Assembly: GCA_021780535.1 (NCBI GenBank)
Contig: JAJXYN010000009.1
Coordinates: forward strand, 224,360-288,359
DNA length: 64,000 nt
Source of the DNA: a bacterium
GTDB lineage: Bacteria > Patescibacteriota > Patescibacteriia > JAGPKW01
Reading direction: 5' to 3'
In this document: piece by piece, positions 28,231 to 47,890 of the stretch
Position numbering within the stretch: the stretch's first letter is position 1
Layout of the letters: each line of letters opens with the position of its first letter
Program-made: the position numbers and the translations under genes
Notes under the pieces: model-generated
The model's input: the letters and a program-made list of their open reading frames with translations, nothing else
The model's database searches: none
What the model was told of the DNA's origin: nothing

Positions 28231-28244
28231 AATATTAAAATTAC

Positions 28245-28288: not shown

Positions 28289-28368
28289 TAAACAATAATT
28301 AACCTTGATTTTTTTCACAAAACAAGATTAAATTAACATAAACTACTTTTAATAAAGGGGGTTATTAA

Positions 28369-28644: not shown

Positions 28645-28779
28645 ATAATAATATTTATTTCTATTAAGTAGAATACTTAATAAGTGTTTTATAATTATGA
28701 TGTTATTTTGACATAAATTATAAAATGTTGTATTTATTTATATAACAACTTTAGTCAGTCTAATAAATAGGGGGATTTT

Positions 28780-29076
28780 ATGAAGAAAAGAGCCACGGCA
28801 AAAATTATATTTAAAACACTAAATGAGGCTTTAGAGGCAAAAAATAATGGCGATACTGATCTTTTGTTAAAATTAAGAAAAAAGGCTATTGGTTATCAAT
28901 GGGATATACTTAGACAAGCTGAAGAAGCTCAAAAACTTGGCAATAATGCTATTGCTAACGAATTAATGTCTATTATTGATAAATCAAAAATTATTACTAT
29001 TAGTACTTTTCCAAAAAATATCCAGAACGAATTAAAAGAAGTAATTGAAATATGCGAAGCATCTAGAAATTCTTGA
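28780..29076 (+). CDS. Hypothetical small alpha-helical protein (98 aa)
   Basis: Strong ribosome-binding site (agggggattttatg). A terminator follows. Confidence 0.45.
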   Translation: MKKRATAKIIFKTLNEALEAKNNGDTDLLLKLRKKAIGYQWDILRQAEEAQKLGNNAIANELMSIIDKSKIITISTFPKNIQNELKEVIEICEASRNS

Positions 29077-29093
29077 TTTTCTAGACAGATGAT

Positions 29094-29125
29094 AATCCGC
29101 TAAAAATATGGCGGATTTTTTATTA
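29094..29125. terminator. Terminator hairpin aatccgc…gcggatt followed by a T-run
   Basis: 7-bp stem and a U6 tract. Sits between convergent genes. Confidence 0.5.
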
Positions 29126-29179
29126 ATTAAATTAAAAATAGGAACCACATATATAGTGGCCCCTATTATTTTCTTATTA

Positions 29180-29953: not shown

Positions 29954-30047
29954 AATAAACCATCCTTGTAAAAGAAAAATATATCTGCAAAAAACAGATA
30001 TGATGTATGGTAGTGTAATTAAAAAATAATGTCAATTGAATAATTAA

Positions 30048-30090
30048 AATAAAAAGTGGTTCAAGTTTTGGTTGAACCACCAATTTTTTG
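30048..30090. terminator. Bidirectional terminator downstream of the MCP gene
   Basis: gtggttcaa-gttttgg-ttgaaccac hairpin, flanked by an A-run and a T-run. Confidence 0.5.
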
Positions 30091-31806: not shown

Positions 31807-31961
31807 GGTTTCCCTCCTATAAACAGAAACTTGTTAACGTTATATTATCCTTGCCAATATAAAAAGTCAATTCATATAATACATTTTAATAAAAAATAAT
31901 TATTTACAAAAACTACAAACTACATTAATCTTATAAAGACAATTTACAAAGGAGGATTAGA

Positions 31962-33074: not shown

Positions 33075-33446
33075 ATACGTTTCAACAACTCTGGCTAACA
33101 TGAAAGTGTTAGCCTTATTTTATTTATATTTATTTAGAATAATAATATAGGTTTATATTATTTTTTATAATTTATTTTTCAAATTTTTCAATATTATGAT
33201 ATTGTTTTTGTATATTTAATTCAATTTCTTATGGGTACAAAAAAATATGCAGTGTTAGTGCATATTTTAAAGCTGGCACCATTCTGGCACACAAATTTTT
33301 AGACTTGCTTTACTCGTCAAAATTTGGAGCTCGTTTGTAGAGGACGTTAGAACTAATTTAGCTAATATACACCAGTAGTTCTCACTATATTGATATTATT
33401 TTATATTAAAGTAAAATTATAGTTATTAGATAAATAATTATAAAAT

Positions 33447-34868
33447 ATGGACAATGAAGAATTATTAGACAAAATACTTCAAGATAAAATTGAGAATGAA
33501 ATAATAGAATTCAAGGAAGCTAAAAATAATTTTGATTTAGATGATTTAGGAAAATATTTTTCTGCATTAAGCAATGAAGCTAATTTAAATAACGCAAACA
33601 ATGCGTATCTTGTATTTGGTATTGATGATAATAAAAAAATAGTTGGGACAACTTGGAAAGATAGTGAAAAGGAAATAAATAAATTAAAAATGTTTATTTC
33701 TGAACATACTGCTAATTCAATTACATTTGAAAATATAATAGTAATAACAAAAGATAAAAAGAGGGTTTTGATATTTGAAATATCTCCAACACCAATAGGA
33801 ATACCAATGTCTTGGAAGGGGCATTTTTATGGCAGAAATGGAGAAAGTTTAGTCCCATTAAATATTGATAAAATAGAAAAAATTAGAAAACAAACAAAAA
33901 TATCATTTGAAAAAGAGATATCAACTGATAATCTAACGGAGGATGAAGTTCTTGGATTACTTGATTATTCAAAATATTTTAGTTTATTAAGCTTCCCCAC
34001 ACCTAAAACAAGAGAAGGCATAACAAGAAAATTGATTGATGATGGTTTTGTTGTTAGAGATGGAAATAGTTTTAAGATAAAAAATTTAGGAGCTATCCTT
34101 TTAGCTAATAATTTAAATGATTTTGAAAAAGTAAAAAGAAAAAAAATAAGAATTATATTATATAAAGGAAAAAATAAAATTGAAACAATAAGAGAAATAG
34201 AGATACAAAAAGGTTATGCTGTTGGTTTTACTGATATAGTTAACAATATAAACACTATATTACCGTCTAATGAAGAGATTTCAAAATTTTTAAGAACAGA
34301 AAAAAAGATGTATCCAGAAATAGCCATAAGAGAATTACTAGCAAACTCATTAGTGCATCAGGATTTCACAGTAACAGGAACAGCACCTATGATTGAAATA
34401 TTTGATGATAGAATAGAGATAACAAACCCAGGAAGTCCCTTAATAGATATAAATAGATTTATAGACCACCATCCACAATCTAGAAATGAAGGCGTTGCCA
34501 ATATAATGAGAATGATAAATATTTGTGAAGAAAGAGGTAGTGGAATAGATAAAGTAATAGCCAGTATAGAGGTATATCAATTACCACCATTAAAAATAGA
34601 AAAATATGAAAATTTTACAAAAGTGATACTCTATTCTGATAAAAGATTATCTTATATGGACAAGAATGATAAAATAAGAGCTTGCTATCAACACTGTTGT
34701 TTAAAGTATGTTGGTAACGAAATAATGACAAATGCCACATTAAGAGAGAGACTTGGAATAAAAAGTGAAAACTATTCTACCGTTTCTAGAATAATAAGAG
34801 ATACTATAGAACAGGGCTTAATAAAAGAATATAAAAATAAGGAATATATACCATTTTGGGCTTCTTGA
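33447..34868 (+). CDS. AlbA_2 (Schlafen-like divergent AAA) plus HATPase_c_4 domain protein, a putative ATP-dependent DNA-binding/defence-associated protein
   Basis: IEFKEAKNNFD…ALSNEANLN…AYLVFGIDDNKKIVG N-terminal AlbA_2 pattern. C-terminal AIRELLANSLVHQDF…IEITNPG HATPase_c_4 pattern plus a wHTH. Confidence 0.7.
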   Translation: MDNEELLDKILQDKIENEIIEFKEAKNNFDLDDLGKYFSALSNEANLNNANNAYLVFGIDDNKKIVGTTWKDSEKEINKLKMFISEHTANSITFENIIVITKDKKRVLIFEISPTPIGIPMSWKGHFYGRNGESLVPLNIDKIEKIRKQTKISFEKEISTDNLTEDEVLGLLDYSKYFSLLSFPTPKTREGITRKLIDDGFVVRDGNSFKIKNLGAILLANNLNDFEKVKRKKIRIILYKGKNKIETIREIEIQKGYAVGFTDIVNNINTILPSNEEISKFLRTEKKMYPEIAIRELLANSLVHQDFTVTGTAPMIEIFDDRIEITNPGSPLIDINRFIDHHPQSRNEGVANIMRMINICEERGSGIDKVIASIEVYQLPPLKIEKYENFTKVILYSDKRLSYMDKNDKIRACYQHCCLKYVGNEIMTNATLRERLGIKSENYSTVSRIIRDTIEQGLIKEYKNKEYIPFWAS

Positions 34869-34904
34869 TGTGATTTTATATATAACAATATAAAACAATA
34901 TAAA

Positions 34905-34932
34905 AAAAATATGCTAATTTTAGCATATTTTT
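34905..34932. terminator. Bidirectional terminator (perfect 12-bp hairpin aaaaatatgcta/tagcatattttt)
   Basis: Lies between the convergent AlbA_2 gene and the defence operon. Confidence 0.5.
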
Positions 34933-34984
34933 TATGTGACTGGAATGTGATTTTAATAAATTATTATCTAAAATAAGGTATTTT

Positions 34985-35446
34985 TTATTTAAACTCATTA
35001 ACAATAAATTTATGTATATTTTTATCTTTTATTTTTCTTAAATATTTTAATAGCAAATCATAAGCTTTGTGTTCTTTATTCTTAGACCAAACAATATTAT
35101 TATCCTCTCTTATTATATCTGAACTTAAAAAGTTTTTTAAAACATCTAAATCTGAGAAATAAGGCACTATGAGTTTATCAAATACTGTATTGTAGTGAGC
35201 ACCCCAACTACACTCTATAAAATGTTTTAGTAACTTTTCTGAATTGTAATTTACTATACATTTTAGAGCTAATTTATCTGCATAGATACAATCAGAATAT
35301 AACACTAAAAAATCATCATCTTTCCCTAATAGTTTTATTATACTACTAAAACTAAAACCACAATTTAGACAACCATTTTCAGTGTCTTGCAAAGTAATTT
35401 TTGTATCACATTTTGGACAAATTAAATATTTTTCAAAAATACCCAT
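34985..35446 (-). CDS. Zn-ribbon protein (last gene of the R-M-linked operon)
   Basis: N-terminal CPKC…(17)…CLNC zinc ribbon. 153 aa. 10-nt gap to the upstream gene. Confidence 0.45.
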   Translation of the reverse strand: MGIFEKYLICPKCDTKITLQDTENGCLNCGFSFSSIIKLLGKDDDFLVLYSDCIYADKLALKCIVNYNSEKLLKHFIECSWGAHYNTVFDKLIVPYFSDLDVLKNFLSSDIIREDNNIVWSKNKEHKAYDLLLKYLRKIKDKNIHKFIVNEFK

Positions 35447-35456
35447 TTTTATTAAA

Positions 35457-35741
35457 TTATTTTATTGGACTAAATATATCTTTTTGTTTTTTATATTGTT
35501 GTTCTTGGATAGCTTCTAAACTTTTTTCCATTATCTTCTTTCTATAAGCTAGTATCTCTTCTCTATAAAAAAGAAAGTAATTTAGTTTAGCATTTTTAGA
35601 ATAATCTGCTAATTGTTCTAAGTCATTAGCTAAAGCCTCTATTCTTTTTACTGTTTTTTCTGCTTTTTTTATTATTATATCCTGCTTCTTTAGAAATACT
35701 TTTTCATTTTTTTCTATTTGGTCAAATCTTCTTGGTGGCAT
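35457..35741 (-). CDS. Small coiled-coil protein (94 aa) in the R-M-linked operon
   Basis: Heptad-rich, Lys/Glu-rich. 18 nt after the nuclease-like gene. Confidence 0.4.
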   Translation of the reverse strand: MPPRRFDQIEKNEKVFLKKQDIIIKKAEKTVKRIEALANDLEQLADYSKNAKLNYFLFYREEILAYRKKIMEKSLEAIQEQQYKKQKDIFSPIK

Positions 35742-35759
35742 ATTCTTTTATTATTATAA

Positions 35760-37229
35760 TTATATATTATTTAAATAATTCAATATCTTAACCATAGCAA
35801 GCGTATCAAGATGACAATAAGTAGTTAAATCCTTATGTATTTTATCTCTATCTTCCTGAGTAAATCTTTCTTCTAATATCATCTCTCTCCAACTATTTGA
35901 AGCCGTCATTCCTTCTTTAATATTAAGCTCTTTGTATGATAATTCTGGAACAAGTATTGGGAGAACTTTTTTAATAGACCAACTTCCGTGAAATCTTCCG
36001 TCTACATAATAAGCATCGTGGAATATGTCCATTAAATCAAATACTCTTTCATTTACATTTAACAAGAAATTATTGTAATTAGGATATCTTTCAGCCATTT
36101 CTCTATTACAACCCATTTCAAAAGATTTATTCCATACAATTACGCTCCCATTATCATCTTTTATTATTTCTTTTAATGTTTTAACTAAATCTATAGAAGG
36201 GTCAGTATTTTCTTTTCCTAGAAATTCAAAATGTTCTAATTCTGAATATGGGGTTTGTTGTATGTGTAATGAATATTGAAATACAACTCTTTGGTATGGC
36301 TTATATCCATTAAACATAGGAATAGCTGGGTTTAAAGTTTCGTAATCAAGAAAATATAAAGGATATTTTAATTTAGATAATTCTTCCTTTATTTTATCTT
36401 TCTCTATATGAGGTTTTCCTGTATTTAAACTCTCTACATAGTATTTCTTTAAATCATTTGTAAGATAACTATCAGGTATATCTTTAGCGTGTATTATTCC
36501 TTCATCAATTAAATTCATTAACTTATTCTCTCTGAATTGAAAGTTATAAATACTATCATCAGGAATATCTTTTTGGCAGTAATCTATAAAATTACAAGTT
36601 TCTGGATTTTTACATTGAGAAAGTATTTCAACATTAAGTTCTTCTTTAAATGTAAGAACTTCTTTTAATTTACTTATTTCATTTTTAACTTCTTCTAGTT
36701 TTTCTATAACTTCTATAGTCTTGTTTTCAATACTAAAATATTGATTTATATCTATTTCACCATTTCTAATATATTGATTATTAACGTGAACTACATAAGT
36801 TTCACCAATACTTAATCCTTGTTTTTCTAATACAATCTTTTGAAAAGCTAAATCTTTAATATGTTGTTTATCTACTTCTGTAGTAGCTTTAATTTCATAT
36901 ATATCAAACTTATTTGTTTCGTTATTAAATTTTAATATATCAGAACGACAATATAACTCATCAACAATAAAAGTGGCTTGATGAATGATTTTAGCACCTT
37001 CTTTAATATATTTTTCTGTTTCTAAGCTACCTTGAAGTTTATCCTCTGTAATTATCTTATCTTTACTATCAAATAACTTATATGCGAGAGTTTCAACTTG
37101 ATATCCTTCTTCTATTTTAAGTTGTTCATTTTTATCTGGAGGTAATACTAAATCTGGTCTATTGATAAATAGCCAAGCAAATTTAGGACATTGTATAAAA
37201 CGTAGATAGTCGGATTTTGTTATTAACAT
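35760..37229 (-). CDS. Nuclease-like protein with an N-terminal Cas4-like PD-(D/E)xK module and a C-terminal FLDYET-bearing domain (recalled as DUF2779)
   Basis: MLITKSDYLRFIQCPKFAWL N-terminus. D…D…EIK motif (VDELYCRSD…IYEIKATT). Cys cluster CKNPETCNFIDYC. C-terminal YFLDYET…VVFQYSLH…VWNKSFE (DEDD/RNase-H-like). The start abuts the res stop (37229/37230). Confidence 0.5.
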   Translation of the reverse strand: MLITKSDYLRFIQCPKFAWLFINRPDLVLPPDKNEQLKIEEGYQVETLAYKLFDSKDKIITEDKLQGSLETEKYIKEGAKIIHQATFIVDELYCRSDILKFNNETNKFDIYEIKATTEVDKQHIKDLAFQKIVLEKQGLSIGETYVVHVNNQYIRNGEIDINQYFSIENKTIEVIEKLEEVKNEISKLKEVLTFKEELNVEILSQCKNPETCNFIDYCQKDIPDDSIYNFQFRENKLMNLIDEGIIHAKDIPDSYLTNDLKKYYVESLNTGKPHIEKDKIKEELSKLKYPLYFLDYETLNPAIPMFNGYKPYQRVVFQYSLHIQQTPYSELEHFEFLGKENTDPSIDLVKTLKEIIKDDNGSVIVWNKSFEMGCNREMAERYPNYNNFLLNVNERVFDLMDIFHDAYYVDGRFHGSWSIKKVLPILVPELSYKELNIKEGMTASNSWREMILEERFTQEDRDKIHKDLTTYCHLDTLAMVKILNYLNNI

Positions 37230-39473
37230 TTAGTTTAAACTTATAAGATTGCCGTTACTAACTTCATATACATCATTTGTGTTTAATTTAAATAATCTAC
37301 CGTTTTCTTTTGGTATAACTATACCACCAAATAATTTATTATTTCCAGCTTCTTTTATATATTCCTGTAGGGCTTCTGCTTTTAACTTTGTTTCTAATTG
37401 TTCTGCTGTTATTCCTTCTTTTGTATCAAAAATACCAATTCTTTCATCTTTATATTTTACTATAAAATCTGGATAAAAACCTTTTAGCTCATTATTCATT
37501 TTATAAGTTATTCCAAAAAATATTTTATTTCCTTGTCCATTTTTAAACCACCACTCAATCTCACTACTTTGTTCCAAATAATTATTTATAAAGTCATTTT
37601 CAGTTTTCCATTTATTATCTAAAAAACAAGGACTTAATATACATTTATCAAAATTGTTTTCATTAAACGTATCTGGGTATGATAAATATTCCGGTACGTT
37701 AAATATTGTTTCAATAGGTTCTTTTATTTTTATTTCTCTTGATTTTATATATTCATCTTTTGATTTATTTATTAAATCTATAAAAAAACTCTGATTTGTT
37801 AATACGATACTTTGTATATCTAATCTACTTTTATTTTGTTCTTCAAATCCAAGATATTTTTCAAAAAGTTCATATATTGATTGCTCTAATATCCCAGTAG
37901 ACCTAGATTGTTGAAATGGAGCACATAAAGAGCTTAAAAATGAGTAAAATAATACTTTTACATATGAATATGATTGTTTAAATTCTTCTTTTTTATCACC
38001 ACTCAAAAAGATTTTGTTATCTATTTCATCTATATTTGAAAATCCTAAATTTGTTATAATTTTTGTATTTAGTTCTTTATTAAAATCAATAAATTTATTT
38101 GCTATGTTTATGTTTTCTTTACTTTTTTCTATATCATAAAATCCATTTATTTTATTAAAAAACTCTTTATGTAAAAATGGTCTAAATTCTAACTTTAAAT
38201 CATTGTAATCAATTCTAGGTAAATAGTATGATTTTAGATTTATGTTTGAGTATAAATTTTTTCTTTTTGCTTCTTTTCTTTTTATGTATTCTTGGGCAAC
38301 ACCTTCAGCAATAGAAATATTTTCTATATTTGTATATAAATAAGCTTTATTTAAATCTTCATTTTGGTAATGCTTTAGTTCTGGCATTCTCATTATTCTA
38401 CCAACTGTTTGTATTTCAAAAATTTGACTTCCTGTTTCTCTGAATTTAATTAAAATTTGAGCCCTTGGACAATCCCAACCAGTCGCTATTGCTTGTTTAA
38501 AGATTAAAGCATCTATAATACTGCTATTTCTATCTATTTCTTCTAAATTCACTTTATCTTCTGAAAGCCACAAAGATAATCTTTTATTTTCTTCTGTTAT
38601 ATTAAATTTATTTTTTAAAATATCTTTAATTTCATCAATTTTTTGTTTGTCTAAATCACTTAAAGTACTCTTTTCATTTGGTAATTGAATTAAAATAAGA
38701 GGATTTATATTAGAATTATTTTTTAAATATAAATCTTTTAAATATTTTTGTTTTTTAATAGCTTCCTCTATTATTGCTTCATCTATAATTAAATTTCTAT
38801 CATTTTTTAACTCTGGATTTATAATAACTTCTTTTTTTATCATTTGTTCATCAATAACATCCTGTAATTCTACGTCAACATTCGGGTTTTCTTCTGGTGT
38901 TGCGGAAATATCTATTTGTAGTTTTGGTTGAATAATTTCATCTATTATTTTTTTACTATCTATCGTCATATGTAAATGACTTTCGTCTATAATAAGAATA
39001 ATTGTTCTACCTTCATCTTTTGCGTTTGTTATAAAATTTTTTAAATTTCTGTTATATTCATTATCCGCCATAAAAATATTAGTATAATCACCAGATTGTA
39101 TACCTTTTTCAGGATTATCCTGTTTTGCTTTATTTCTTATTTTTTCCCAATTTATAAAAAGTATCTCATTTTGTTTTAATATATTATCTTGGACATCTTC
39201 TAAATTTGAAAACTTAAAAACACCATTATTTATTATAGATTGAAGTCTATTTTTACTTTGATTATGTAATTCGTGTATAGATAACCAAACAAAGCTAAAA
39301 TTACCTTGTATTTCTTTAGTAAATCTTTCTAGATATTTTGCTATCATAACTGTTTTTCCAGAGCCGGTAGGAGCTTTAAATACTATTTTTCTGTTATCAT
39401 TTTTATTTAAAAATTTCACAGTCTCTTCAAAAAGTTCGTTTATAGCTTTTATTTGATAATTTTTTAATTCCAT
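37230..39473 (-). CDS. res: Type III restriction enzyme, Res subunit
   Basis: 747 aa. SF2 helicase motifs (KAPTGSGKT, LIIDESHL, TVGRIMRMP) and a C-terminal PD…(D/E)xK (YPDFIV…IFDTKEG). Directly downstream of mod. Confidence 0.8.
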   Translation of the reverse strand: MELKNYQIKAINELFEETVKFLNKNDNRKIVFKAPTGSGKTVMIAKYLERFTKEIQGNFSFVWLSIHELHNQSKNRLQSIINNGVFKFSNLEDVQDNILKQNEILFINWEKIRNKAKQDNPEKGIQSGDYTNIFMADNEYNRNLKNFITNAKDEGRTIILIIDESHLHMTIDSKKIIDEIIQPKLQIDISATPEENPNVDVELQDVIDEQMIKKEVIINPELKNDRNLIIDEAIIEEAIKKQKYLKDLYLKNNSNINPLILIQLPNEKSTLSDLDKQKIDEIKDILKNKFNITEENKRLSLWLSEDKVNLEEIDRNSSIIDALIFKQAIATGWDCPRAQILIKFRETGSQIFEIQTVGRIMRMPELKHYQNEDLNKAYLYTNIENISIAEGVAQEYIKRKEAKRKNLYSNINLKSYYLPRIDYNDLKLEFRPFLHKEFFNKINGFYDIEKSKENINIANKFIDFNKELNTKIITNLGFSNIDEIDNKIFLSGDKKEEFKQSYSYVKVLFYSFLSSLCAPFQQSRSTGILEQSIYELFEKYLGFEEQNKSRLDIQSIVLTNQSFFIDLINKSKDEYIKSREIKIKEPIETIFNVPEYLSYPDTFNENNFDKCILSPCFLDNKWKTENDFINNYLEQSSEIEWWFKNGQGNKIFFGITYKMNNELKGFYPDFIVKYKDERIGIFDTKEGITAEQLETKLKAEALQEYIKEAGNNKLFGGIVIPKENGRLFKLNTNDVYEVSNGNLISLN

Positions 39474-39476
39474 ATT

Positions 39477-41195
39477 TTAAAAATTAAATATCTTCTTATA
39501 TGTTTCTAGTATTGGGTCTGGTATATCTTCCAATTCCAAATTCAAATTTAAATGTTCCAATTCTTGTTTAAAATTTATTTTTGATGGAGAAAATATATAC
39601 ATTTTAATCTTCTTATGTTCTAATTTTAATAAGTCTTTTTTAAATTCATCAAACATAAATAAATCAAATAAAATAGCTAGATAGATATCTTTATTTTGAT
39701 AAATTTTTATCATTTTTCCATTTTTTACAACACTAAAACAATCCTCTTTTAAACAAAGAATTTCTGTTGACCTATTAACCATTTTTTTTCTTAAGTCATC
39801 TGTTATTTTATCTAAATTTATAAAATCTGTTTTTAAATATTTTAGATTTCCTTTGAGGGCTTTTATTGTTTTGCCCTTTTTGTTTTTATAGCCCTCTATT
39901 ACTTTTTTTATTCTTAAATAACATATATCTTCGCATATTTTATGTTCAGATTTTTCATCGCCATTATTTGTACATAGTATAAATTTTCTATTCCCATTAT
40001 CTTCATTATTTAATTCCAAAACAGCTTGTCCCGTTGTTCCTGAACCAGCAAAAAAATCTAAAACAGTTATGTTATTATTTTTATTTGTAATTGAAATTAA
40101 ATGTTTAATAAGTTCTTTTGGTTTAGAAAAAGGAAAATCAATATCTAGTTTAATAAGTTCTTTTGAGCCCATAGAGTTTGGCATATCAATAAAAGTAAGT
40201 GGCTTCATACCAGCTTCTTGTCTTTCGTGTAAATAAATTTTTGTGTAAACATTCCATATAGACCTTTTACCACTCTCATCTATTAAAGGAGATGTTTTTG
40301 TTTTTAGAAAAACAACTCTATTTTCTTCTAATTTTGATTTAAATGTAGATGGTATCCATCTAAACATTTTATTTTCAAAAGGAGTTGTAACCTTTGTTCC
40401 GTCTGGGCACTCTATAAAATATCTCTGATTTGGACGTTTATCTAGACTTGGCATATATAAAGATACTAAATTATATTTTCCTCTATCATCTGAATATTTA
40501 AATAATTTTATATATTCAGAACTTTCTTGAGCTTCAGCATCGTTAAATTCTTCTAATAAATCTATATTTTTTGCATAACAAAGAATGTAATCTGTTGAGG
40601 GAGAAAAAAATCTACCCTTATTACTTGTTTCTTTTTGTTTTCTAACTACATTTGCTAAAAAATTTTGTTCTCCAAATATTTCATCGCATAATATCTTTAA
40701 TTGATACAATTCATCATCTCCAATTGAAATAAATATAACCCCATTATTATTTAGAAGTTCCTTAGCTAATTTCAATCTTTTATTCATAAAAGATAACCAC
40801 TTAGAATGTCTAAATCTATCTTCTTTATCAACAAATACATCATTATAAATGAAATCTTTATTCCCAGTATTGTATGGTGGGTCAATATATATAACATCTA
40901 TTTTTTCTTTATGTGTATAGCTTAACACAGACAAAGAATGATAATTATCTCCTTCTATAAGTATGTTCATACTATCATTTATATCAGATATTACATCATT
41001 ATAATTATCTTTTTTCTTCTCACTTAAAACAGGAAGGGATATTTCAGATTGTTTTTCAAAAATCTCTTTTTTATCTTCCCATATTAAACCATACCTCTTA
41101 TTTTTTTTAACAGTTTTTATTTGTTTTTTTAACTTTTCTATCTCATTTAATAATTCTTGTTCTTTTTGATTGTTTTGCATAAAAAAATCGGACAC
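39477..41195 (-). CDS. mod: Type III R-M DNA methyltransferase, Mod subunit (N6-adenine, beta class)
   Basis: DPPY motif IV (IYIDPPYNTG) before the C-terminal motif I (FFAGSGTTGQA). GTG start at 41195, with an alternative ATG at 41180. Confidence 0.8.
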   Translation of the reverse strand: MSDFFMQNNQKEQELLNEIEKLKKQIKTVKKNKRYGLIWEDKKEIFEKQSEISLPVLSEKKKDNYNDVISDINDSMNILIEGDNYHSLSVLSYTHKEKIDVIYIDPPYNTGNKDFIYNDVFVDKEDRFRHSKWLSFMNKRLKLAKELLNNNGVIFISIGDDELYQLKILCDEIFGEQNFLANVVRKQKETSNKGRFFSPSTDYILCYAKNIDLLEEFNDAEAQESSEYIKLFKYSDDRGKYNLVSLYMPSLDKRPNQRYFIECPDGTKVTTPFENKMFRWIPSTFKSKLEENRVVFLKTKTSPLIDESGKRSIWNVYTKIYLHERQEAGMKPLTFIDMPNSMGSKELIKLDIDFPFSKPKELIKHLISITNKNNNITVLDFFAGSGTTGQAVLELNNEDNGNRKFILCTNNGDEKSEHKICEDICYLRIKKVIEGYKNKKGKTIKALKGNLKYLKTDFINLDKITDDLRKKMVNRSTEILCLKEDCFSVVKNGKMIKIYQNKDIYLAILFDLFMFDEFKKDLLKLEHKKIKMYIFSPSKINFKQELEHLNLNLELEDIPDPILETYKKIFNF

Positions 41196-41400
41196 CTGAC
41201 TAGTTAGCTTGCGAAGCTACATAGTGGTATCCGAGAGACGCCACTTATGATTTAACCGTCAGATGCCCGATTATCTTCATAAATGGCGAATATATGTATT
41301 AAAAAATACAAAATAAACAAAAAACAATTATCTGTAATAATTGCAGTATTCTCTCGGATATTAAATTGTAGCTTCGCATTATCTAATATAACCTTAATAT
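41189..41400. repeat. GC-rich structured element with nested long-range inverted repeats
   Basis: Arms tgcgaagctaca…tatccgagaga (41210-41238) and tctctcggata…tgtagcttcgca (41350-41378). Inner pair cgccacttatga (41239-41250) with tcataaatggcg (41277-41288). Pair cggacacctgac (41189-41200) with ccgtcagatgcccg (41256-41269). Confidence 0.45.
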
Positions 41401-41544
41401 AACAAAAAAACAAGGCGATGCTATAACAAAATGTCTTTCTTTGTTTTTTATTATATTATTGAGCAACACTTCAATATATGTGTTGAAAAATGTGATATTT
41501 TAGAATAAGATAAAAGTAATATTTATATTTAAATTAAGATTAAA

Positions 41545-42642
41545 ATGGAAGAATTATTTAAAAATTTGAAACCTTACTCAAAAATAACCTTTTACAATGA
41601 TACAACGCCATTAGAATACGACTGTTTTGATTTAATTTTTGACTTATATCACGATTTTTATTCTTTAAATAGAGACACTACTTATACACTTAAAAAAAGT
41701 TTTGTATTTGATGATGATGAATTTAATAAAATTAAAATATTTTTAGAAGAATTAAAAAATGCTAATATTATTGATAGTTTTTCTGAAGAAAAAACAGCTC
41801 TTAAACCAAAAGATGATGATGATATAATAATGTGGCTGAATAGTAAATTCGATATAAAAATATTATTTACACCAAAAATAGAAGGATTTGATTTACTTGG
41901 CTATATTGCAGAAAAAAATAAATTAAATATCTACGGGGATAAAATACAAAAACAAAAGATATCTAAGATGATTTTATCTAAATTCGAAGAATACCAAAAT
42001 AATGAGTTATTTTTTGATTTGTATTATAGTGATGAATGGAATAATTCTGAAGATATAGAAAAATATTTAGATGGTTCATATTCTGATTACGAAAAGATAA
42101 ACGCATTTAAAACACTAAGAAATCTAGAGAATGATAAAATAATACAAATAAAAGAAACTTCCGTATTAAGAGAATATGGAAATAAAATAATTATAGCAAA
42201 TGTAAAAATAAAAATATTGGAAACAGATAAGCTTTATAATGCGAGCTATGATAAATCTAAAAAAGAAATTACTACTGATAAAGAAATAAACACTGAACAA
42301 TTTCTATATACCTACAATAAACAAAAGAAAAATGGCTCGCTTGTTTTAAAAAGCTTTGGGGAATACGTTAATTTTACAGGAAGAAGGAGCGCAATATTTC
42401 TATTTTTTTACAAAAAAAGAAATGAAAATAAATTTTTTGATTACAAAGAACTAAATTTATTTCTAAAAGAAAATGATTTTGAAGAAATAAAATCCGATGG
42501 CTTAAACAAAGACATTAAAACAGTTAATAAAATTATAAATGTTTTAACAAACAATGAATTAAAAGAAATAATACTTATAGATAAAGAGAAAAATGAAAAA
42601 GACGCTGATATAAATGTTTATAAATTTAATAACCTAAAATAG
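41545..42642 (+). CDS. Hypothetical protein (365 aa), first gene of the element
   Basis: ORF only. Asp/Glu/Lys-rich with no recognised motif. Confidence 0.45.
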   Translation: MEELFKNLKPYSKITFYNDTTPLEYDCFDLIFDLYHDFYSLNRDTTYTLKKSFVFDDDEFNKIKIFLEELKNANIIDSFSEEKTALKPKDDDDIIMWLNSKFDIKILFTPKIEGFDLLGYIAEKNKLNIYGDKIQKQKISKMILSKFEEYQNNELFFDLYYSDEWNNSEDIEKYLDGSYSDYEKINAFKTLRNLENDKIIQIKETSVLREYGNKIIIANVKIKILETDKLYNASYDKSKKEITTDKEINTEQFLYTYNKQKKNGSLVLKSFGEYVNFTGRRSAIFLFFYKKRNENKFFDYKELNLFLKENDFEEIKSDGLNKDIKTVNKIINVLTNNELKEIILIDKEKNEKDADINVYKFNNLK

Positions 42643-42860
42643 TCGGATTTATACTCGGATTTTTTAAAAAATAGCTAATATATGGCTATTTTTTATTTGA
42701 ATATTTTTATTTTTCATAAGTATATCGTATTTTATGTCGTTGTTAATAAATCACCAAAACCGAGAATAGTAGCATATTTTAAGTTATGAAATAATACAAA
42801 ATGAAAATATTTTCTAAACAACAAACTGCAGTTTGAATATTTAATAATAAAAATAAAATT

Positions 42861-43112
42861 ATGTTCAAATATTTAAAAGAAAACGATTTTTTTACAACTC
42901 CAGACATTTGTCTTGGGGCTACAATATTGTATTTTGGATACAAAATAGAATGTGTTGAAAATAAAAACAACAAAACACACTTCTCTTTTAGAAGAGATAA
43001 AAAACTAGATGATTTAATACAAGACCATTTAAATCATTTATTAAAGGTTGAGCCTATGATGTTTTTTGAAAAAACAAAAGAACTTAAAAAAAGAATACAT
43101 TTTGGTATATGA
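42861..43112 (+). CDS. DUF5659-like small protein
   Basis: FFTTPDICLGATILYFGYKIECVEN…THFSF…LKVEPMMFFEKTKELKKRIH matches the remembered DUF5659 pattern (F-T-D-L-L-A…G…F-F…E-P…L-K). Confidence 0.45.
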   Translation: MFKYLKENDFFTTPDICLGATILYFGYKIECVENKNNKTHFSFRRDKKLDDLIQDHLNHLLKVEPMMFFEKTKELKKRIHFGI

Positions 43113-43264
43113 ATTTAAAAGAAAAAGACATTAAAGAATTCCAAAGGCTTTATAAAGAAGAATTTGGAGAAGAATTGGATTTTGAAGAAGCAAAAAAACA
43201 ATGTGACGACTTCCTTGAATTTATGGTTTTATTCTTCAAACCAAAAAATCTTATAAAATATTAA
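43109..43264 (+). CDS. Small acidic ORF (51 aa), ATGA-overlapped with the upstream gene
   Basis: MNLKEKDIKEFQRLYKEEFGEELDFEEAKKQCDDFLEFMVLFFKPKNLIKY. Translationally coupled position. Below the ORF-track cutoff. Confidence 0.3.
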   Translation: MNLKEKDIKEFQRLYKEEFGEELDFEEAKKQCDDFLEFMVLFFKPKNLIKY

Positions 43265-43280
43265 AATTAACATTAAAAAT

Positions 43281-44567
43281 ATGGAAAATATAGAGAGCGT
43301 TTTAAGTTCTGTTGATGAAGTTTTTGAAAAAGAGCAAAAAGAGCAAATCAATAAATTTAAAGAAAAGTTTAAAGAATTAAATGCTGAAAATCTAAAAAGT
43401 ACTTTAGGTCTAACAATTAAAAAGGATAATGAAAATAAGATAATAACTTTCTTATGCCAATTATCATCTTACACAGAAGATAACCAATTTAATATTATAT
43501 TTAACGCCCCCTCTTCTAGTGGTAAATCATATATACCAACAGAGATAGCAAAACTTTTCCCAAGCGAAGATGTAATGGAAGTTGCTTATTGTTCTCCAAC
43601 AGCTTTTTTTCACGATAGTGGTGTATACAATGAAGAAAGAAAAAGTATAGATATGGATTTATCTAAAAAAATACTTATATTTTTAGACCAGCCACACGCT
43701 CAATTATTAGAAAGATTAAGACCTTTGTTGTCTCACGATAAAAAAGAAATACTTGTTAAAATATCTGATAAAACTGGCAAGGGCGGTTTAAAAACAAGGA
43801 ATATTTATATAAAGGGCTTTCCATCTGTAATATTTTGTTCTGCTAATACAAATATAGACGAACAAGAAAGTACTAGGTCTATATTATTATCACCTGAAAT
43901 AAATCAAGAAAAATTAAGAGAAAGTATCTTGGAAAAAATAAAATATGAAACAAATAAGGATACTTATAAAGATTTTATAAATCAAAATCAAGAAAGAATT
44001 TTATTAAAGGAAAGAATTTTAGAAATTAAAAAACTAAATATAAAGGATATAAAAATAGCAGATGAAGAACTTATTATAGGATTATTTTTTAAGGGTAAAA
44101 AAATATTAAAACCAAGACACCAAAGAGATATAGCTAGATTTATATCAATAATAAAATCATTTGCTTTATTAAATTGTTTCTATAGAGAGAAAAGTGGTGA
44201 TGACATAATAGCTAGTTATGATGATATAGAAAGTGCTATGAACATATGGCAAGTTGTTTCTGAAAGCCAGGAATATAATATCTCTCCTTATTTGTATGGT
44301 TTTTATAAAGAGATAATACTCCCATTGTTTTTAAGTAAAAACAAAAGAGGTATTTTAAGAAAAGAAGTTTTGCAAAAATATTTTGAAGTTTATGAAAAGA
44401 ATATACCAGATTGGCAATTAAGACAAAGTATTCTGCCAGCTCTTGAAAACTCTGGTTTAATATATCAAGAACAAGACGAAACAAATAAAAGAAAAATTCT
44501 TATTTACTGCTCCGAAAGAGAAAACAAAGAAATAATTGATTTAAGCAAAAACGAAATAACAATATAG
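43281..44567 (+). CDS. P-loop NTPase (element replication/primase-helicase-like)
   Basis: Walker A FNAPSSSGKSY and Walker B-like ILIFLDQ. 428 aa. Sits in the mobile element. Confidence 0.45.
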   Translation: MENIESVLSSVDEVFEKEQKEQINKFKEKFKELNAENLKSTLGLTIKKDNENKIITFLCQLSSYTEDNQFNIIFNAPSSSGKSYIPTEIAKLFPSEDVMEVAYCSPTAFFHDSGVYNEERKSIDMDLSKKILIFLDQPHAQLLERLRPLLSHDKKEILVKISDKTGKGGLKTRNIYIKGFPSVIFCSANTNIDEQESTRSILLSPEINQEKLRESILEKIKYETNKDTYKDFINQNQERILLKERILEIKKLNIKDIKIADEELIIGLFFKGKKILKPRHQRDIARFISIIKSFALLNCFYREKSGDDIIASYDDIESAMNIWQVVSESQEYNISPYLYGFYKEIILPLFLSKNKRGILRKEVLQKYFEVYEKNIPDWQLRQSILPALENSGLIYQEQDETNKRKILIYCSERENKEIIDLSKNEITI

Positions 44568-44604
44568 TGAGTTGCACTATATGTAATTTATAAATAATAA
44601 AAAT

Positions 44605-45255
44605 ATGAGTAAAAAACTTAAAATATTAAAAAAAGATAGAGACAGAGTTGTAAAAAGAATATCAGAAGATTATACAAACGAAGATATTGTAAATATATCA
44701 ATTTTAAATTCTACCACTTGGTTAAAAAGAGATAATCTTATAGAAGAGTTAAAAACGGATTTATCAGAATTACAATTATTAAAAAAAGAAAATAAAGACA
44801 CTTCAGAATTTGAAGAAAAAATAAAAGATAAGATGGAAAAGATATCTCTTGTTAATAGTAATAAATCCAGTCACGCTTTTATAGAGGGCGTGTCTGTGAG
44901 GTATAGAGGTTATGCTATAAAAATGAAAGAGGATTTAATAAAAGAATATGATGCAAAAACGTTGATAGAATTTTCTCTAATAGAACAAATAGTAAGTTCT
45001 AATATAAAGTTTATTGCCTGTTCAAAAAAAATGATAGAAGCTTCTGAATTTGATTACTTTGGAAATGATAGAAATAATTTTTTAAAATTTTTATCTATAG
45101 AAAAAGATAGAGCTTTTAGACAGTTTATTTCTGGAACACAAGCATTGCAACAATTAAAACAACCTTCATTGAATATTAAAATAAACACTAAAAATGCTTT
45201 TATAGCTCAAAATCAGCAATTAAACAGTAATTCAGAAAACAATGATACCAAATAA
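44605..45255 (+). CDS. Hypothetical protein (216 aa)
   Basis: ORF. Overlaps the next gene by 14 nt. Confidence 0.4.
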   Translation: MSKKLKILKKDRDRVVKRISEDYTNEDIVNISILNSTTWLKRDNLIEELKTDLSELQLLKKENKDTSEFEEKIKDKMEKISLVNSNKSSHAFIEGVSVRYRGYAIKMKEDLIKEYDAKTLIEFSLIEQIVSSNIKFIACSKKMIEASEFDYFGNDRNNFLKFLSIEKDRAFRQFISGTQALQQLKQPSLNIKINTKNAFIAQNQQLNSNSENNDTK

Positions 45256-45565
45256 TTTCGACAAGTTTTTAGTAAGTCAATGTCAAAAGCTTGATATAAA
45301 AAATCTAGTTAAGTCAATACAGGAAGAGCTTTTAAGAGATTTAATATTAAAATCTGAAATAAATTTTGAGGATGTAAATATAGAGTTTTCTTATTCCAAG
45401 ACTGGCTTTGATGGTTCTAGGTTATGGTTAAAATGCCCTATATGTAGTCATAATATAAGAATAATTTATAAAACACCTAATAATTTTATAGGTTGTAGAA
45501 AATGTTTAAACTTAGACTATGAAAGTCATATATATAAAAAAATAAAAAATAAAATATGGGATTAA
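45242..45565 (+). CDS. Small Zn-finger protein (107 aa)
   Basis: CPIC…(18)…CRKC motif. Confidence 0.4.
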   Translation: MIPNNFDKFLVSQCQKLDIKNLVKSIQEELLRDLILKSEINFEDVNIEFSYSKTGFDGSRLWLKCPICSHNIRIIYKTPNNFIGCRKCLNLDYESHIYKKIKNKIWD

Positions 45566-45864
45566 GTATAGATGGTAAAAATATAGAACAAAATATACAT
45601 TTTAACTGGAATTGTTTAGATAATTTTATAAAGTGGTGTAGCACGAAAAACATACCATTATTATTTCCTGATTGGGACGGAACAAATGCCAATAAAATAA
45701 TTGATTTAAGAAATAAGAAATCACAAAGAAAATTAAAGAAAAAATTGTATGTGGTAGAAAAATTTATAACAAATGAAATAGATTATAATTTGTTTATTCT
45801 TATTAAGTATTATATATTTTTAAAAAATCAATTAGATAATAATGGATTTATAGAATATTCTTAA
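45556..45864 (+). CDS. Hypothetical protein (102 aa)
   Basis: ORF. Overlaps the previous gene by 10 nt. Confidence 0.35.
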   Translation: MGLSIDGKNIEQNIHFNWNCLDNFIKWCSTKNIPLLFPDWDGTNANKIIDLRNKKSQRKLKKKLYVVEKFITNEIDYNLFILIKYYIFLKNQLDNNGFIEYS

Positions 45865-45874
45865 CTTAAAATAT

Positions 45875-46015
45875 ATGATTTCAGAAAAAAACTTACAAAA
45901 ATTTATGGATTTATACGAAAAAGAATACGGGGTTAAATTAACAAGACAGGAGGCGTTCAATCTTTTCTCAAGGTTTGTAAACATAGTAAGAATTGTATAT
46001 GAAACAAAGGATTAA
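45875..46015 (+). CDS. Small ORF (46 aa) upstream of the recombinase (excisionase/RDF-like candidate)
   Basis: MISEKNLQKFMDLYEKEYGVKLTRQEAFNLFSRFVNIVRIVYETKD. Position suggests a directionality factor. Speculative. Confidence 0.25.
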   Translation: MISEKNLQKFMDLYEKEYGVKLTRQEAFNLFSRFVNIVRIVYETKD

Positions 46016-46115
46016 CAAATCAATAAAAGTATTATAAAATGATTATATTGACCCAACTTAATATTTTCTATGAAAGAGACTTTTTATAATGTCTATCTTT
46101 GTTATCGTCTATATA

Positions 46116-46170
46116 GGACAGTTCTGCCGATAATTCTTTCATAGGAATGTTGGGTCAATCAGGACTGTCC
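46116..46170. other. Candidate recombination (att-like) site: ggacagt…(40 nt)…gactgtcc inverted repeat
   Basis: Imperfect inverted-repeat arms GGACAGT / ACTGTCC, interleaved with a second pair ttgacccaac (46048-46057) / gttgggtcaa (46149-46158). About 35 nt upstream of the serine recombinase start. Confidence 0.35.
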
Positions 46171-46204
46171 TTTTAGATTTAATAAAATTAACATTAAAAA
46201 AAAT

Positions 46205-47827
46205 ATGATAAAAGAAAATAGAAATTTAAAATATGCTATATATCTTCGTAAATCAACTGATAGTGAAGATAGACAAGTTCAGTCAATAGAAGACCAAGAA
46301 AAAGAAATAAATATTTTAGTAGAAAGAGAAGGAATTAAAAAAGAAAATATAATAGAAATCTTCAAAGAAAGTAAATCTGCCAAAAAACCTGGGAGAGAAG
46401 AATTCAATAGAATGATGTGTTTAATAAAAGAAGGCAAAATTGATAGTGTTATGTGTTGGAAATTAAATCGTTTAGCAAGAAATCCTATCGATGGTGGCGA
46501 AATTCAATGGTTACTACAACAAAATATAATTAAATCAATATTAACAAATGAAAGAGAATACCTTCCAACTGACAATGTTCTTATGATGGCAGTTGAATTG
46601 GGAATGGCAAATCAATTTGTATTAGACTTAAGTAAAGATGTTAAAAGAGGAATGAGGGGTAAAGTAGAAAAAGGCTGGAGACCAATGAGAGCTCCCATTG
46701 GATATATAAACGACAAAGCTGGTAATAAAGGAGAGAAAAAGATTTTTAGAGATGAAACTAGATTTGATATAGTGAGAAAGTGTTGGGAGCTTTTATTTAC
46801 AAGAAAATATACAGTACCAGAAATTACAGAAATAGCTAATGAAACATATGGTTTAAGAGACTATAAAGGTGAGAAAATAAATAATAGCACCTTTTATAAG
46901 ATATTTAGAAATACTTTTTATTATGGAGAGTTTAGTTATTGTGGCGAAGTGTATCAAGGAAAACACGAACCAATGATAACAAAAACAGAATTTGAATACG
47001 CTCAAGATATTTTAAGTGGTAGTAAACATAATAAAAGACCAAAAACAAAAAATCTCCCATACAATGGAATTATTACTTGTGGCGAATGTGGCTGTTATAT
47101 TACATCAGAAGAGAAAATAAAATATGTTAAGTCAGAAAATAAAGTCAAAAATTATGTATATAATAAATGTTGTAGTAATAATAGATGTTTTAAATGTTCT
47201 CAGAAGCCAATAAAATATGAAGAATTGTCTGAACAAGTTAAAAAATACCTAGAAACAATAAAGATAACTGATAAATTTTTTAATTTTGCCCTAATGGTTT
47301 TCAAAGAAAGAAATATGGTAGAAGAAGAAAATAGAAATAGTATCATAAGAAACTTACAATCAAATCATACGGAGGTTATAAAAAAGATAGATAACTTAAT
47401 AAATTTATTTGTATCTCAAAATAATCAAAATAGAGAGCTTTTAAGTGAAGATGAATATATTTCTCAAAAATCATTTCTTGCTAAAGAAAAAATAAGAATA
47501 GAACAACAAATAAAGGATATTATGGAAGAAACATCAACTCAAGATAAAAGATTTGATGACGAAATAAACTTTGTTCATACAGAAATAGAAATGTTTGATA
47601 ATGGGAGTTATGAAAAAAGAACTCAAATATTAAGAAAAATGGGAGAAAGCTTTATTTTAAAGGATGGAATGCTTGATATACAATTAAAAAAAGTATTTCT
47701 AACATTCACTACTTACCAGTCAGAGTATAAAAAGAGAGAAATAGAACTAAGCAATATAAGAAATTTCAGCGAATTTAAAACAAAAAAAGAAGCTGATGCT
47801 TCTTTTCGTTCTATCTGGAGCGGGTAA
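46205..47827 (+). CDS. Large serine recombinase (integrase)
   Basis: N-terminal resolvase domain (AIYLRKSTDSEDRQ…LNRLARN), recombinase domain and Cys-rich zinc ribbon (CGECGCYIT…C…C). 540 aa. Confidence 0.85.
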   Translation: MIKENRNLKYAIYLRKSTDSEDRQVQSIEDQEKEINILVEREGIKKENIIEIFKESKSAKKPGREEFNRMMCLIKEGKIDSVMCWKLNRLARNPIDGGEIQWLLQQNIIKSILTNEREYLPTDNVLMMAVELGMANQFVLDLSKDVKRGMRGKVEKGWRPMRAPIGYINDKAGNKGEKKIFRDETRFDIVRKCWELLFTRKYTVPEITEIANETYGLRDYKGEKINNSTFYKIFRNTFYYGEFSYCGEVYQGKHEPMITKTEFEYAQDILSGSKHNKRPKTKNLPYNGIITCGECGCYITSEEKIKYVKSENKVKNYVYNKCCSNNRCFKCSQKPIKYEELSEQVKKYLETIKITDKFFNFALMVFKERNMVEEENRNSIIRNLQSNHTEVIKKIDNLINLFVSQNNQNRELLSEDEYISQKSFLAKEKIRIEQQIKDIMEETSTQDKRFDDEINFVHTEIEMFDNGSYEKRTQILRKMGESFILKDGMLDIQLKKVFLTFTTYQSEYKKREIELSNIRNFSEFKTKKEADASFRSIWSG

Positions 47828-47890
47828 GGAGAATCGGACTCCCCTCTTCAGCTTGGAAGGCTGACATAATAGCCACTATACGATACCCGC
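47816..47890 (-). tRNA. tRNA-Gly (anticodon TCC), CCA encoded, with an atypical T-loop (C at position 55)
   Basis: Reverse complement GCGGGTATCGTATAGTGGCTATTATGTCAGCCTTCCAAGCTGAAGAGGGGAGTCCGATTCTCCTTACCCGCTCCA. 7-bp acceptor stem and anticodon stem TCAGC/GCTGA. The 3' 12 nt overlap the recombinase stop. Confidence 0.65.

Follow-up and report, generated by a model that had tools for sequence, protein, structure and literature searches.

A probable 14.5-kb mobile element of Patescibacteria with a large serine recombinase, integrated at the 3′ end of tRNA-Gly

The tRNA-Gly locus and its attachment sites

The window analysed here is a 64,000-nucleotide (nt) stretch of bacterial DNA (GenBank assembly GCA_021780535.1, contig JAJXYN010000009.1, positions 224,360 to 288,359). 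It also matches contig DAIEHF010000006.1 of assembly GCA_027355865.1. The window contains a gene for tRNA-Gly(TCC) on the minus strand (47816–47890), called by both ARAGORN and Rfam, and a convergent gene for a large serine recombinase (LSR) on the plus strand (46205–47827). The segment from 33325 to 47821 is very probably an integrated mobile element of about 14.5 kb, inserted by the LSR at the extreme 3′ end of the tRNA gene in a Patescibacteria chromosome. The host DNA has a GC content of about 25%, and the nearest named relatives of the host DnaG protein lie in the Patescibacteria group, in Parcubacteria and Falkowbacteria metagenome-assembled genomes (MAGs), which points to a bacterium of the candidate phyla radiation (CPR) as the host.

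The tRNA-proximal part of the element is composed of nine co-directional open reading frames (ORFs) on the plus strand, at 41545–42642, 42861–43112, 43109–43264, 43281–44567, 44605–45255, 45242–45565, 45556–45864, 45875–46015, and 46205–47827. Some of these frames overlap, by 4, 14, and 10 nt. The last one encodes the LSR, a protein of 540 residues in its integrated form. Its stop codon, TAA at 47825–47827, is located inside the antisense tRNA gene, and the two genes share 12 nt. Taken as their reverse complement, these last 12 nt of the ORF, TGG AGC GGG TAA, give acceptor-stem sequence, the discriminator, and the CCA end of the tRNA. The gene order, the overlaps between frames, and the position of the stop codon are all as described in the original prediction, which was made from sequence alone and concerned 41401–47890.

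Two copies of the hexanucleotide TGGAGC bracket the element. The right copy, the attR core (47816–47821, plus strand), abuts the tRNA body and is antisense to two acceptor bases, the discriminator, and the CCA end. The left copy, the attL core (33325–33330, plus strand), equals the first 6 nt of the tRNA-Gly 3′ end read on the plus strand, and abuts the original flank of the tRNA with its terminator. The attL site (33325–33353) joins this native flank, via TGGAGC, to a P′ arm with the sequence TCGTTTGTAGAGGACGTTAGAAC (33331–33353, plus strand), which carries a T-arm-like motif. The displaced native 3′ flank of the tRNA, here termed the B arm (33238–33324, minus strand), is homologous to the post-tRNA sequence of three related loci, L108, L109, and L110. 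It includes the original intrinsic terminator, a minus-strand hairpin at 33245–33265 followed by a T-run, which matches L086 and L094 at 91–93%. It also includes a 51-nt spacer (33277–33327, overlapping the core), which had looked extra in comparison with L086 and is part of the native flank seen in L108-type genomes. The tRNA fragment displaced to the far end measures only 6 nt, and the tRNA itself is intact.

The crossover is predicted to occur inside TGGAGC. The predicted attP junction of the element reads ...CGTTCTATC-TGGAGC-TCGTTTGTAGAGGACG..., and the predicted restored attB junction reads ...CTCGTCAAAATT-TGGAGC-GGGTAAGGAGAATCGG.... The P′ motif of the reconstructed attP contains GTTAGAAC, the proposed counterpart of GAAC in the T-arm of attB. 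Read through the reconstructed attP, the LSR would be 554 residues long, compared with 540 in the integrated form.

The combination of TGGAGC and P′ arm at 33325 is the sole candidate site between 24.0 and 46.2 kb, relaxed core included. The window scan found no core-plus-P′ site near 41.4 kb, and from 33.4 to 46.2 kb it gave no further site of the attL or attP type. A repeat of the tRNA end was searched for upstream with a 29-mer and a 14-mer, allowing up to three mismatches, and none was found. General repeat finding over 30–50 kb returned only A/T-rich noise. A reading of 33325–33400 as a decayed tRNA duplicate was rejected: the region gives no Rfam tRNA signal, and an attL site of core plus P′ arm fits better.

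These results revise part of the original prediction, which had proposed a 6.5-kb element starting at 41401 with the classic signature of integration at a tRNA 3′ end. Integration at the tRNA-Gly 3′ end stands, and so does the claim that the element side supplies the tRNA terminus and the sequence downstream of it. The proposed extent has to be abandoned, as there is no boundary at 41401 and the element spans 14.5 kb. The label of a classic signature does not fit either, since it belongs to tyrosine integrases, which displace a long tRNA fragment, and the enzyme here is a serine recombinase. The absence of a direct repeat of the 29-nt tRNA end was, by itself, one of two grounds named for giving up the prediction; the repeat is absent, though the element appears real.

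Read in the TGG frame, the native flank at 33277–33330 is open for 19 codons and ends in ...LLVKIWS, compared with ...FRSIWSG at the recombinase tail. This open flank beside the attL core might conceivably be a relic of an older recombinase 3′ end, that is, of an old P arm.

Further relatives, reached via DnaG and Nth homologues, allow the occupied site to be compared with an empty one, a comparison proposed with the original prediction. L108, L109, and L110 have such an unoccupied tRNA-Gly site, in which the tRNA is followed directly by native flank, aattttgac...ccagctttaaaatatgcac. This flank corresponds to the window sequence immediately left of the attL core, with 82 of 97 aligned columns identical and an alignment score of 95.5, compared with 19.4 ± 5.2 in shuffles. 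Compared with L108, the window carries an insertion of 14,491 bp that separates ...AAAATT from TGGAGC-GGGTAAGG..., and the entire 14.5 kb is missing from L108. Synteny between L086 (Nth 81%, DnaG 89%) and the window extends over both sides, and the right-hand match stops exactly at 47816. Synteny with both L086 and L108 breaks at the tRNA-Gly 3′ end.

Two other loci were considered and set aside. L086 was rejected as a clean empty site, as its terminator is duplicated and an attL-type relic lies 1.4 kb away from the tRNA; L108 is the better comparison. L004 (GCA_021833805.1, JAKBEM010000191.1) was considered as an empty or variant site and judged to be a chimeric assembly. Its identity with the window ends at 47262, within the recombinase gene, and 392 nt (8209–8600) at about 55% GC follow.

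The sequence next to the tRNA-Gly is variable among the relatives. In L102, the tRNA-Gly is followed by a different terminator, then by Fic and WG-repeat genes, and then by an attL-type site. L108 contains MarR and flavodoxin genes and an attL-type site that abuts the terminator type trailing the tRNA in L102. L105 has a third flank. Contigs L104, L106, and L107, from several samples and with a 79%-identical Nth, stop at or within about 140 nt past the tRNA-Gly, as expected if the site is polymorphic in those populations. Two flank types, X (ataaaaataacgct..agcgttattttt) and Y (..ctttaaaatatgcac..), exchange places between L102 (10745–10780 and 14227–14300) and L108 (9135–9275 and 11460–11517). 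In L102, X comes after the tRNA and Y after the attL-type site; in L108, the order is the reverse. The exchange suggests that the element-borne downstream sequence of one integration may become the 'host' arm of the next. Tandem attL copies are present in seven LSR loci (L006, L007, L025, L051, L057, L062, and L070). This pattern of accretion and decay resembles that of the Dehalococcoides ssrA islands. The 14.5 kb of the window may have arrived in one piece or by accretion.

The recombinase clade, the T-arm look-alike and the replacement terminator

The LSR matches the Pfam families Resolvase (PF00239, 2e-17), Recombinase (PF07508, 7e-9), and Zn_ribbon_recom (PF13408, 2e-4), and a PHROG integrase family at 2e-59. 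The PF13408 match scores 22.1 bits, under the cut-off of 25.3, yet the four zinc-ribbon cysteines C292, C295, C322, and C331 are invariant in the clade. In an alignment with 16 relatives (17 clade members), the LSR keeps these cysteines and all other invariant residues, including S17 in the motif Y-x-R-K-S, and residues 340–470 align across the clade. It is the only Resolvase-domain protein in the element, which carries no small serine recombinase like the DsiA of Dehalococcoides islands. Pfam gives no match to a Phage_integrase domain in the ORFs between 33.4 and 47.8 kb.

The T-arm of the tRNA, ...TCGAAC, ends 24 nt from the 3′ end, whereas the T-arm-like motif of the P′ arm ends 29 nt from the core start, that is, 5 nt further out. 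A shift of this kind has been described for a Listeria integrase, in which the motif bound by the zinc-ribbon domain (ZD motif) occupies bp 16–24 of the attP half-site and bp 11–19 of the attB half-site, 'shifted by 5 bp toward the center' (Rutherford et al. 2013, PMC3783163). If the T-arm is the ZD motif of attB, with the acceptor/T-arm half of the tRNA-Gly as the B′ arm of the target site, the site centre would lie near nt 5 of the tRNA end, inside the TGGAGC common to attL and attR. Core identity and motif offset are two independent lines that agree on this centre. With the putative ZD motifs assigned in this way, the P′ and B′ half-sites display the 5-bp attP/attB offset.

The same architecture was searched for at 49 loci. 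It was defined as a match, upstream of the LSR and on its strand, to at least 5 nt of the tRNA end at that locus, together with a motif T[ACT]G[AG]AC that ends at a fixed offset from the T-loop position. About 10 kb of upstream sequence is available for most loci, which limits the census of attL sites. At an offset of +5 on the LSR strand, the architecture is present in 14 of the 49 loci. Any other offset from −3 to +11 gives 0–5 loci, the +5 offset on the opposite strand gives one, and shuffled sequence gives 0.8. The junction of L036 resembles window 33325–33353. A loose search with the P′ motif only (four edits) is uninformative, unlike this register-aware test, as it returned 234 matches compared with 282 in shuffled sequence.

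In five loci (L020, L023, L033, L040, and the IMG/VR contig L087), an attP-type junction composed of P arm, core, and P′ motif directly follows the LSR gene, and no tRNA is present there. The junctions of L033 (about 11580–11620) and L040 (about 11650–11700) sit in long chromosomal contigs of 698 kb and 2.18 Mb, from Bacteroidetes and Latescibacterota MAGs. They may represent tandem arrays, or members of the family from outside the CPR.

The tRNA-Gly of the window carries a substitution at position 55 (window 47837). Its T-loop reads TCCGATT, with C at the normally invariant U55, in contrast to TTCGATT in L086, L102, and L108. The tRNA has an Rfam score of 54.6, below those of the other two tRNAs in the window, and the U55 change falls within the proposed B′ recognition motif.

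The overlap between the LSR gene and a tRNA gene recurs among related recombinases. The sample consisted of 80 LSR relatives from reference genomes, mostly Patescibacteria MAGs. The 3′ junction of the LSR gene could be assessed at 74 loci and not at the other six. An antisense tRNA overlaps or abuts the LSR 3′ end at 48 loci; a tRNA is found at a relaxed threshold only at three more, T-arm-like sequence only at five, and nothing at 18. The tRNAs include ten identities (Asn, Asp, Gln, Gly, His, Ile, Ser, Thr, Trp, and Tyr) and 13 anticodons. The commonest overlap between ORF and tRNA is 12–13 nt, and the ORFs end in tails such as W-S-G*, W-G-A*, and W-R-R-G*, in which W is encoded by the antisense of CCA. 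By this comparison of sequences, the overlap is a property of the clade and not a product of chance. The chance that it is a mere gene-calling coincidence in an A/T-rich genome is negligible: such a reading could point to a shared segment of 12 nt and nothing else, and it is countered by the recurrence of the same convergent arrangement at 48 of 74 loci with many tRNA species and systematic ORF tails.

Few elements of the LSR clade are assigned to viruses. Viral contigs searched with the LSR alone gave nothing, and a search with the alignment returned seven distant matches in IMG/VR. The exact predicted attP junction of the window element was not found. Two of the IMG/VR contigs, L090 and L093, whose LSRs are 23–26% identical, have long tRNA 3′ fragments (acceptor, T-arm, and more) just after the LSR gene. 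From these sequences, tRNA targeting by serine recombinases may reach phages with a more 'classical' long identity segment.

The 3′ end of the LSR gene contains a predicted replacement terminator for the tRNA. The last LSR codons, which are part of the P arm, hold AAAAGAAGC-TGAT-GCTTCTTTT (47784–47807). Read on the minus strand, this sequence forms a hairpin and then a T-run, 9 nt past the tRNA-Gly, and constitutes an element-borne intrinsic terminator. The feature is general: over 49 loci, the 55 nt downstream of the tRNA have a mean minimum free energy of −15.7 kcal/mol, compared with −7.4 kcal/mol for antisense controls taken from the same ORFs (p=1e-22). At 35 of the 49 loci, the tRNA is followed by a hairpin and a T-run, compared with 23% of controls.

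These observations can be assembled into a mechanism. The B′ half of attB bound by the LSR would be the acceptor/T-arm of the tRNA, in which the near-universal T-arm (...TCGAAC) would provide the ZD motif. In attP, the LSR would bind the T-arm look-alike, which lies 5 bp further out, as the P′ half, and strands would be exchanged within TGGAGC. After integration, the chromosome would retain the tRNA body, the shared core would provide the discriminator and CCA, and the hairpin plus T-run in the last ~15 LSR codons would stand in for the displaced terminator. The LSR gene would itself be the P arm, with a reading frame that crosses the crossover and halts at the first stop codon in the tRNA; the ORF would appear to end inside the tRNA for this reason. 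Excision would require recombination between attL and attR and a directionality factor.

The core module and the cargo genes

The remainder of the element would be composed of a replication-type module, with an MCM-like AAA+ NTPase and conserved small proteins, and of swappable cargo, with a type III restriction-modification (R-M) system and nuclease- or defence-like genes. A core module of DUF5659 protein, small helical protein, NTPase, zinc-ribbon protein, and LSR recurs across many loci. In relatives with a mapped attL, a minus-strand cargo block is joined to a plus-strand core module, and the elements measure 6.5–10.5 kb. Their cargo includes a KAP NTPase, a superfamily 1 (SF1) helicase, a DUF5677 protein, and a Y-family polymerase.

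The core module of the window begins with a 365-residue protein (41545–42642, plus strand) that has no homologue among the related loci. It is followed by an 83-residue protein (42861–43112), which was predicted to be DUF5659-like and is assigned to DUF5659 by Pfam (1e-8), and by a 51-residue helical protein (43109–43264). These two plus-strand genes form a pair conserved in the family. Three overlapping plus-strand ORFs at 44605–45864 encode proteins of 216, 107, and 102 residues, the second a zinc-ribbon protein with a CxxC...CxxC motif; the 216- and 107-residue ORFs recur as a pair in L007 and L078. The ORF at 45875–46015 (plus strand) encodes a 46-residue paralogue of the 51-residue protein (E=3e-6) and has homologues in related loci. 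Both of these small ORFs, 43109–43264 and 45875–46015, fell below the ORF cut-off of the original prediction, which had nonetheless picked them out; their paralogy and their homologues near LSRs elsewhere identify them as real genes.

The NTPase is a 428-residue MCM-like AAA+ protein (43281–44567, plus strand) that corresponds to the helicase part of a primase-helicase family. Its homologues number more than 2231 and occur in two forms, one of about 720 residues with an N-terminal Toprim primase domain and one of about 415–450 residues like that of the window. The structural model has a pLDDT of 77. In Foldseek, its top matches are MCM subunits (E=5e-8, TM 0.4–0.48); it also matches BchI and, more weakly, phage and satellite primase-helicases. 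No sequence-level match was found in the PDB. The Toprim-fused homologues support a putative role in replication.

A strand switch and an intergenic region of about 350 nt (41196–41544) separate the core module from the cargo and represent an internal divergent control region inside the element. This region contains an interrupted inverted repeat (41210–41378), between the mod gene and the gene of the 365-residue protein, with 29-nt arms that are 83% complementary, a 111-nt A/T-rich spacer, and a fold z-score of −7.0. The repeat may serve the MCM-like NTPase as a replication origin, or it may represent a pair of operators or a structured leader. Rfam returned nothing meaningful for 41150–41560.

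The type III R-M, DUF2779 nuclease, and Schlafen-like genes all lie within the att sites. The R-M genes (37230–41195, minus strand) encode Res (37230–39473) and Mod (39477–41195). The adjacent pair qualifies as a type III system in both Pfam and PADLOC (REase_III 7e-18, MTase_III 5e-89), and homologous Mod/Res pairs are located upstream of LSR modules in L015, L017, L038, and L049. The DUF2779 protein (35760–37229, minus strand; Pfam 2e-41) has a Cas4-like N-terminal region of the PD-(D/E)xK type (PADLOC Cas4 1e-7). Two small minus-strand cargo genes (34985–35741) encode proteins of 153 residues, with an N-terminal zinc-ribbon-like motif, and of 94 residues. Next to attL, a 473-residue protein (33447–34868, plus strand) combines Schlafen AlbA_2 and HATPase_c_4 domains in Pfam and has a weak Argonaute-associated match in PADLOC.

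A second variable block lies outside the element, between tRNA-Arg and attL (24648–33180). It is missing from L086 and replaced by other genes in L094. Its GC content reaches 0.32–0.37 at 29–31 kb, and it encodes proteins that are not usual in CPR bacteria (a methyl-accepting chemotaxis protein, a periplasmic binding protein, and a GGDEF protein). The block is probably older horizontally acquired material. It also contains three tandem paralogous small ORFs (27508–28644; 82, 94, and 91 residues), each beginning MxI(D/E)VTE/ITP....

Alternative histories, known systems and significance

Several observations weigh against a single mobile element of 14.5 kb that uses the proposed sites. No recombination directionality factor was identified for the element. 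No excised (attP) or circular form of it was found, and every assembly with an identical flank carries the element integrated; short contigs were checked for circularity by terminal repeats, and none is circular. Inspection of the P and B arms by eye revealed no convincing mirror-image motif, so that the ZD-motif reading draws on one half-site per att site. Beyond the 14 loci described above, where about one is expected, the +5 site is not seen in the remainder of the 49 loci within the 10 kb available. In members of other subgroups (L048, L051, and L057), the upstream tRNA repeats are 16–22 nt long and reach the T-loop, and the far junction has the order native terminator, tRNA 3′ fragment, element DNA. 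Finally, L086, L102, and L108 contain attL-type sites with near-identical P′ arms (79–89%) and no LSR. Given these LSR-less sites, the window attL at 33325 could predate the present LSR module.

The last point leads to a composite history, which is possible and, in our judgement, rather unlikely. Here, the attL at 33325 would be a relic of an earlier family member, and the LSR core module (about 41.2–47.8 kb) would have come later, in a tRNA-proximal position. The defence genes at 33.4–41.2 kb would be the remains of older cassettes, built up by accretion, and the newer element would have lost its own left junction. The relic sites argue for this history, as they occur in three lineages and are followed by different genes, and so do the tandem attL copies in seven loci and the X/Y terminator flanks swapped between L102 and L108. 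Accretion is also documented for the Dehalococcoides ssrA islands (PMC3146451). Against it, no second attL- or attP-type site exists between 33.4 and 46.2 kb, the relatives with a mapped attL share the bipartite layout as a single unit, and in L038 and L049 Mod/Res are placed as in the window with respect to the core module. Even with a composite history, the 14.5 kb would remain a unit bracketed by usable att sites.

Equally doubtful is a fixed island that is no longer mobile, in which an old integration is inherited vertically and the recombinase is either kept for another role or not yet decayed. Such an island would account for the integrated state in all assemblies of the population and for the lack of an attP form. 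The attL region is as diverged from relatives as the host DNA is, and the NTPase lacks the Toprim primase domain present in about half of its homologues. However, the short form of the NTPase is common in the family and hence is not a truncation, the LSR keeps every invariant residue, both att sites have a perfect 6-nt core, and the P′ arm agrees with the consensus. This alternative bears on present activity and not on what the structure is.

A 6.5-kb element of the classic tRNA-integrating kind at 41401–47890, with a long direct repeat of the tRNA end, is very improbable. The strand switch with its 350-nt intergenic region (41196–41544) would suit a boundary, and the nine plus-strand genes do form a conserved module. 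However, no tRNA-end repeat was detected even with three mismatches, no core-plus-P′ site lies near 41.4 kb, the whole 14.5 kb is missing in L108, and the recombinase is a serine and not a tyrosine enzyme.

The 14.5-kb element inserted by an LSR belongs to a kind that is already known. A close likeness is with the ssrA islands of Dehalococcoides, in which DsiB, a CcrB/large-serine recombinase of about 540 residues, is encoded at one end and the target is the 3′ end of transfer-messenger RNA (tmRNA) (McMurdie et al. 2011, PMC3146451). Both systems have an LSR of this size at the island end, a tRNA-like 3′ end as target, and accessory cargo. In Dehalococcoides, insertion was inferred in or near the T-loop, and tandem accretion and recombinase-less, repeat-bounded cassettes were found. 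Those islands differ from the window in the tmRNA target, a 20-bp repeat instead of 6 nt, a second, small recombinase (DsiA), and the host phylum. No T-arm mimic offset, ORF–tRNA overlap, or built-in terminator was described for them.

The phage serine integrases of A118/LI, Bxb1, and phiC31 share with the window LSR the three domains, short att sites, and a small core; at one half-site pair, P′ and B′, the window also shows the 5-bp outward shift predicted by the Rutherford–Van Duyne attP/attB model. Those enzymes target protein-coding or intergenic sites, unlike the window LSR, which has a tRNA end as its target and the T-arm as the motif common to the two half-sites. The integrase ORF of the window also differs in spanning the P arm and the crossover. 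Islands of tyrosine integrases (Islander-type; P4-like and SaPI-like elements, and integrative and conjugative elements) likewise target tRNA 3′ ends and restore the tRNA, their integrase gene adjoins one att site, and cargo builds up at the site. They use another enzyme family and chemistry, and displace a long tRNA fragment instead of 6 nt. Some tyrosine integrase genes overlap attP, such that integration changes the C-terminus of the protein, as for IntP of the Myxococcus phage Mx8. The LSR resembles this type in that its frame crosses the crossover, with the change from 554 to 540 residues falling in a poorly conserved tail, and differs in that those enzymes are tyrosine integrases.

Tycheposons of Prochlorococcus are likewise small and lie beside tRNA genes; they encode an integrase, a primase/helicase replication module, and cargo of ecological relevance, and 27 of 937 carry an LSR instead of a tyrosine recombinase (Hackl et al., bioRxiv 10.1101/2020.12.28.424599). 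Their host belongs to a different phylum, and their serine minority was not analysed for att-site logic. A survey by Mageeney et al. (2020) arrived at only 14 serine cases of tRNA targeting, out of 297 predicted cases, for which 'experimental proof will be required' (PMC7192596). Durrant et al. (2022) nowhere mention tRNA. In the literature searched, no account of DUF5659 came up, and none that links serine recombinases to tRNAs in CPR bacteria. As far as this literature shows, the new features are the clade-wide targeting of tRNAs, the very short core, the T-arm decoy with its 5-bp offset, and the overlap of ORF, P arm, and terminator. The LSR group is widespread and apparently undescribed.

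A broader reading, in which we place middling confidence, extends the mechanism to the clade. From the sequence comparisons, a Patescibacteria-wide clade of LSRs would use the near-universal T-arm as ZD motif, with a target that could be switched among at least ten tRNA identities by altering the contacts at the acceptor end and nothing else. The T-arm decoy would mark attP, and the LSR gene would serve as both P arm and replacement terminator. If true, this would constitute a natural, modular, and predictable attB code for serine integrases, and would define the main family of integrative elements in CPR bacteria. The register of the two half-sites would also back the 5-bp attP/attB offset model with independent, comparative evidence.

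Large DNA is mainly inserted with serine integrases, whose natural targets have seemed idiosyncratic, and tRNA targeting has been credited to tyrosine integrases. The present family, a large natural one, may recognise in one half-site a tRNA feature that is conserved, and differ from member to member in the other contacts. If so, dozens of enzyme–site pairs over 13 anticodons would form a data set for learning how specificity is encoded, and attB sites would be present in essentially every organism. For the biology of the hosts, the element family would explain the hypervariable locus beside tRNA-Gly. It may also represent a common vehicle for defence systems and replication genes in CPR/Patescibacteria, whose mobile elements have barely been described.

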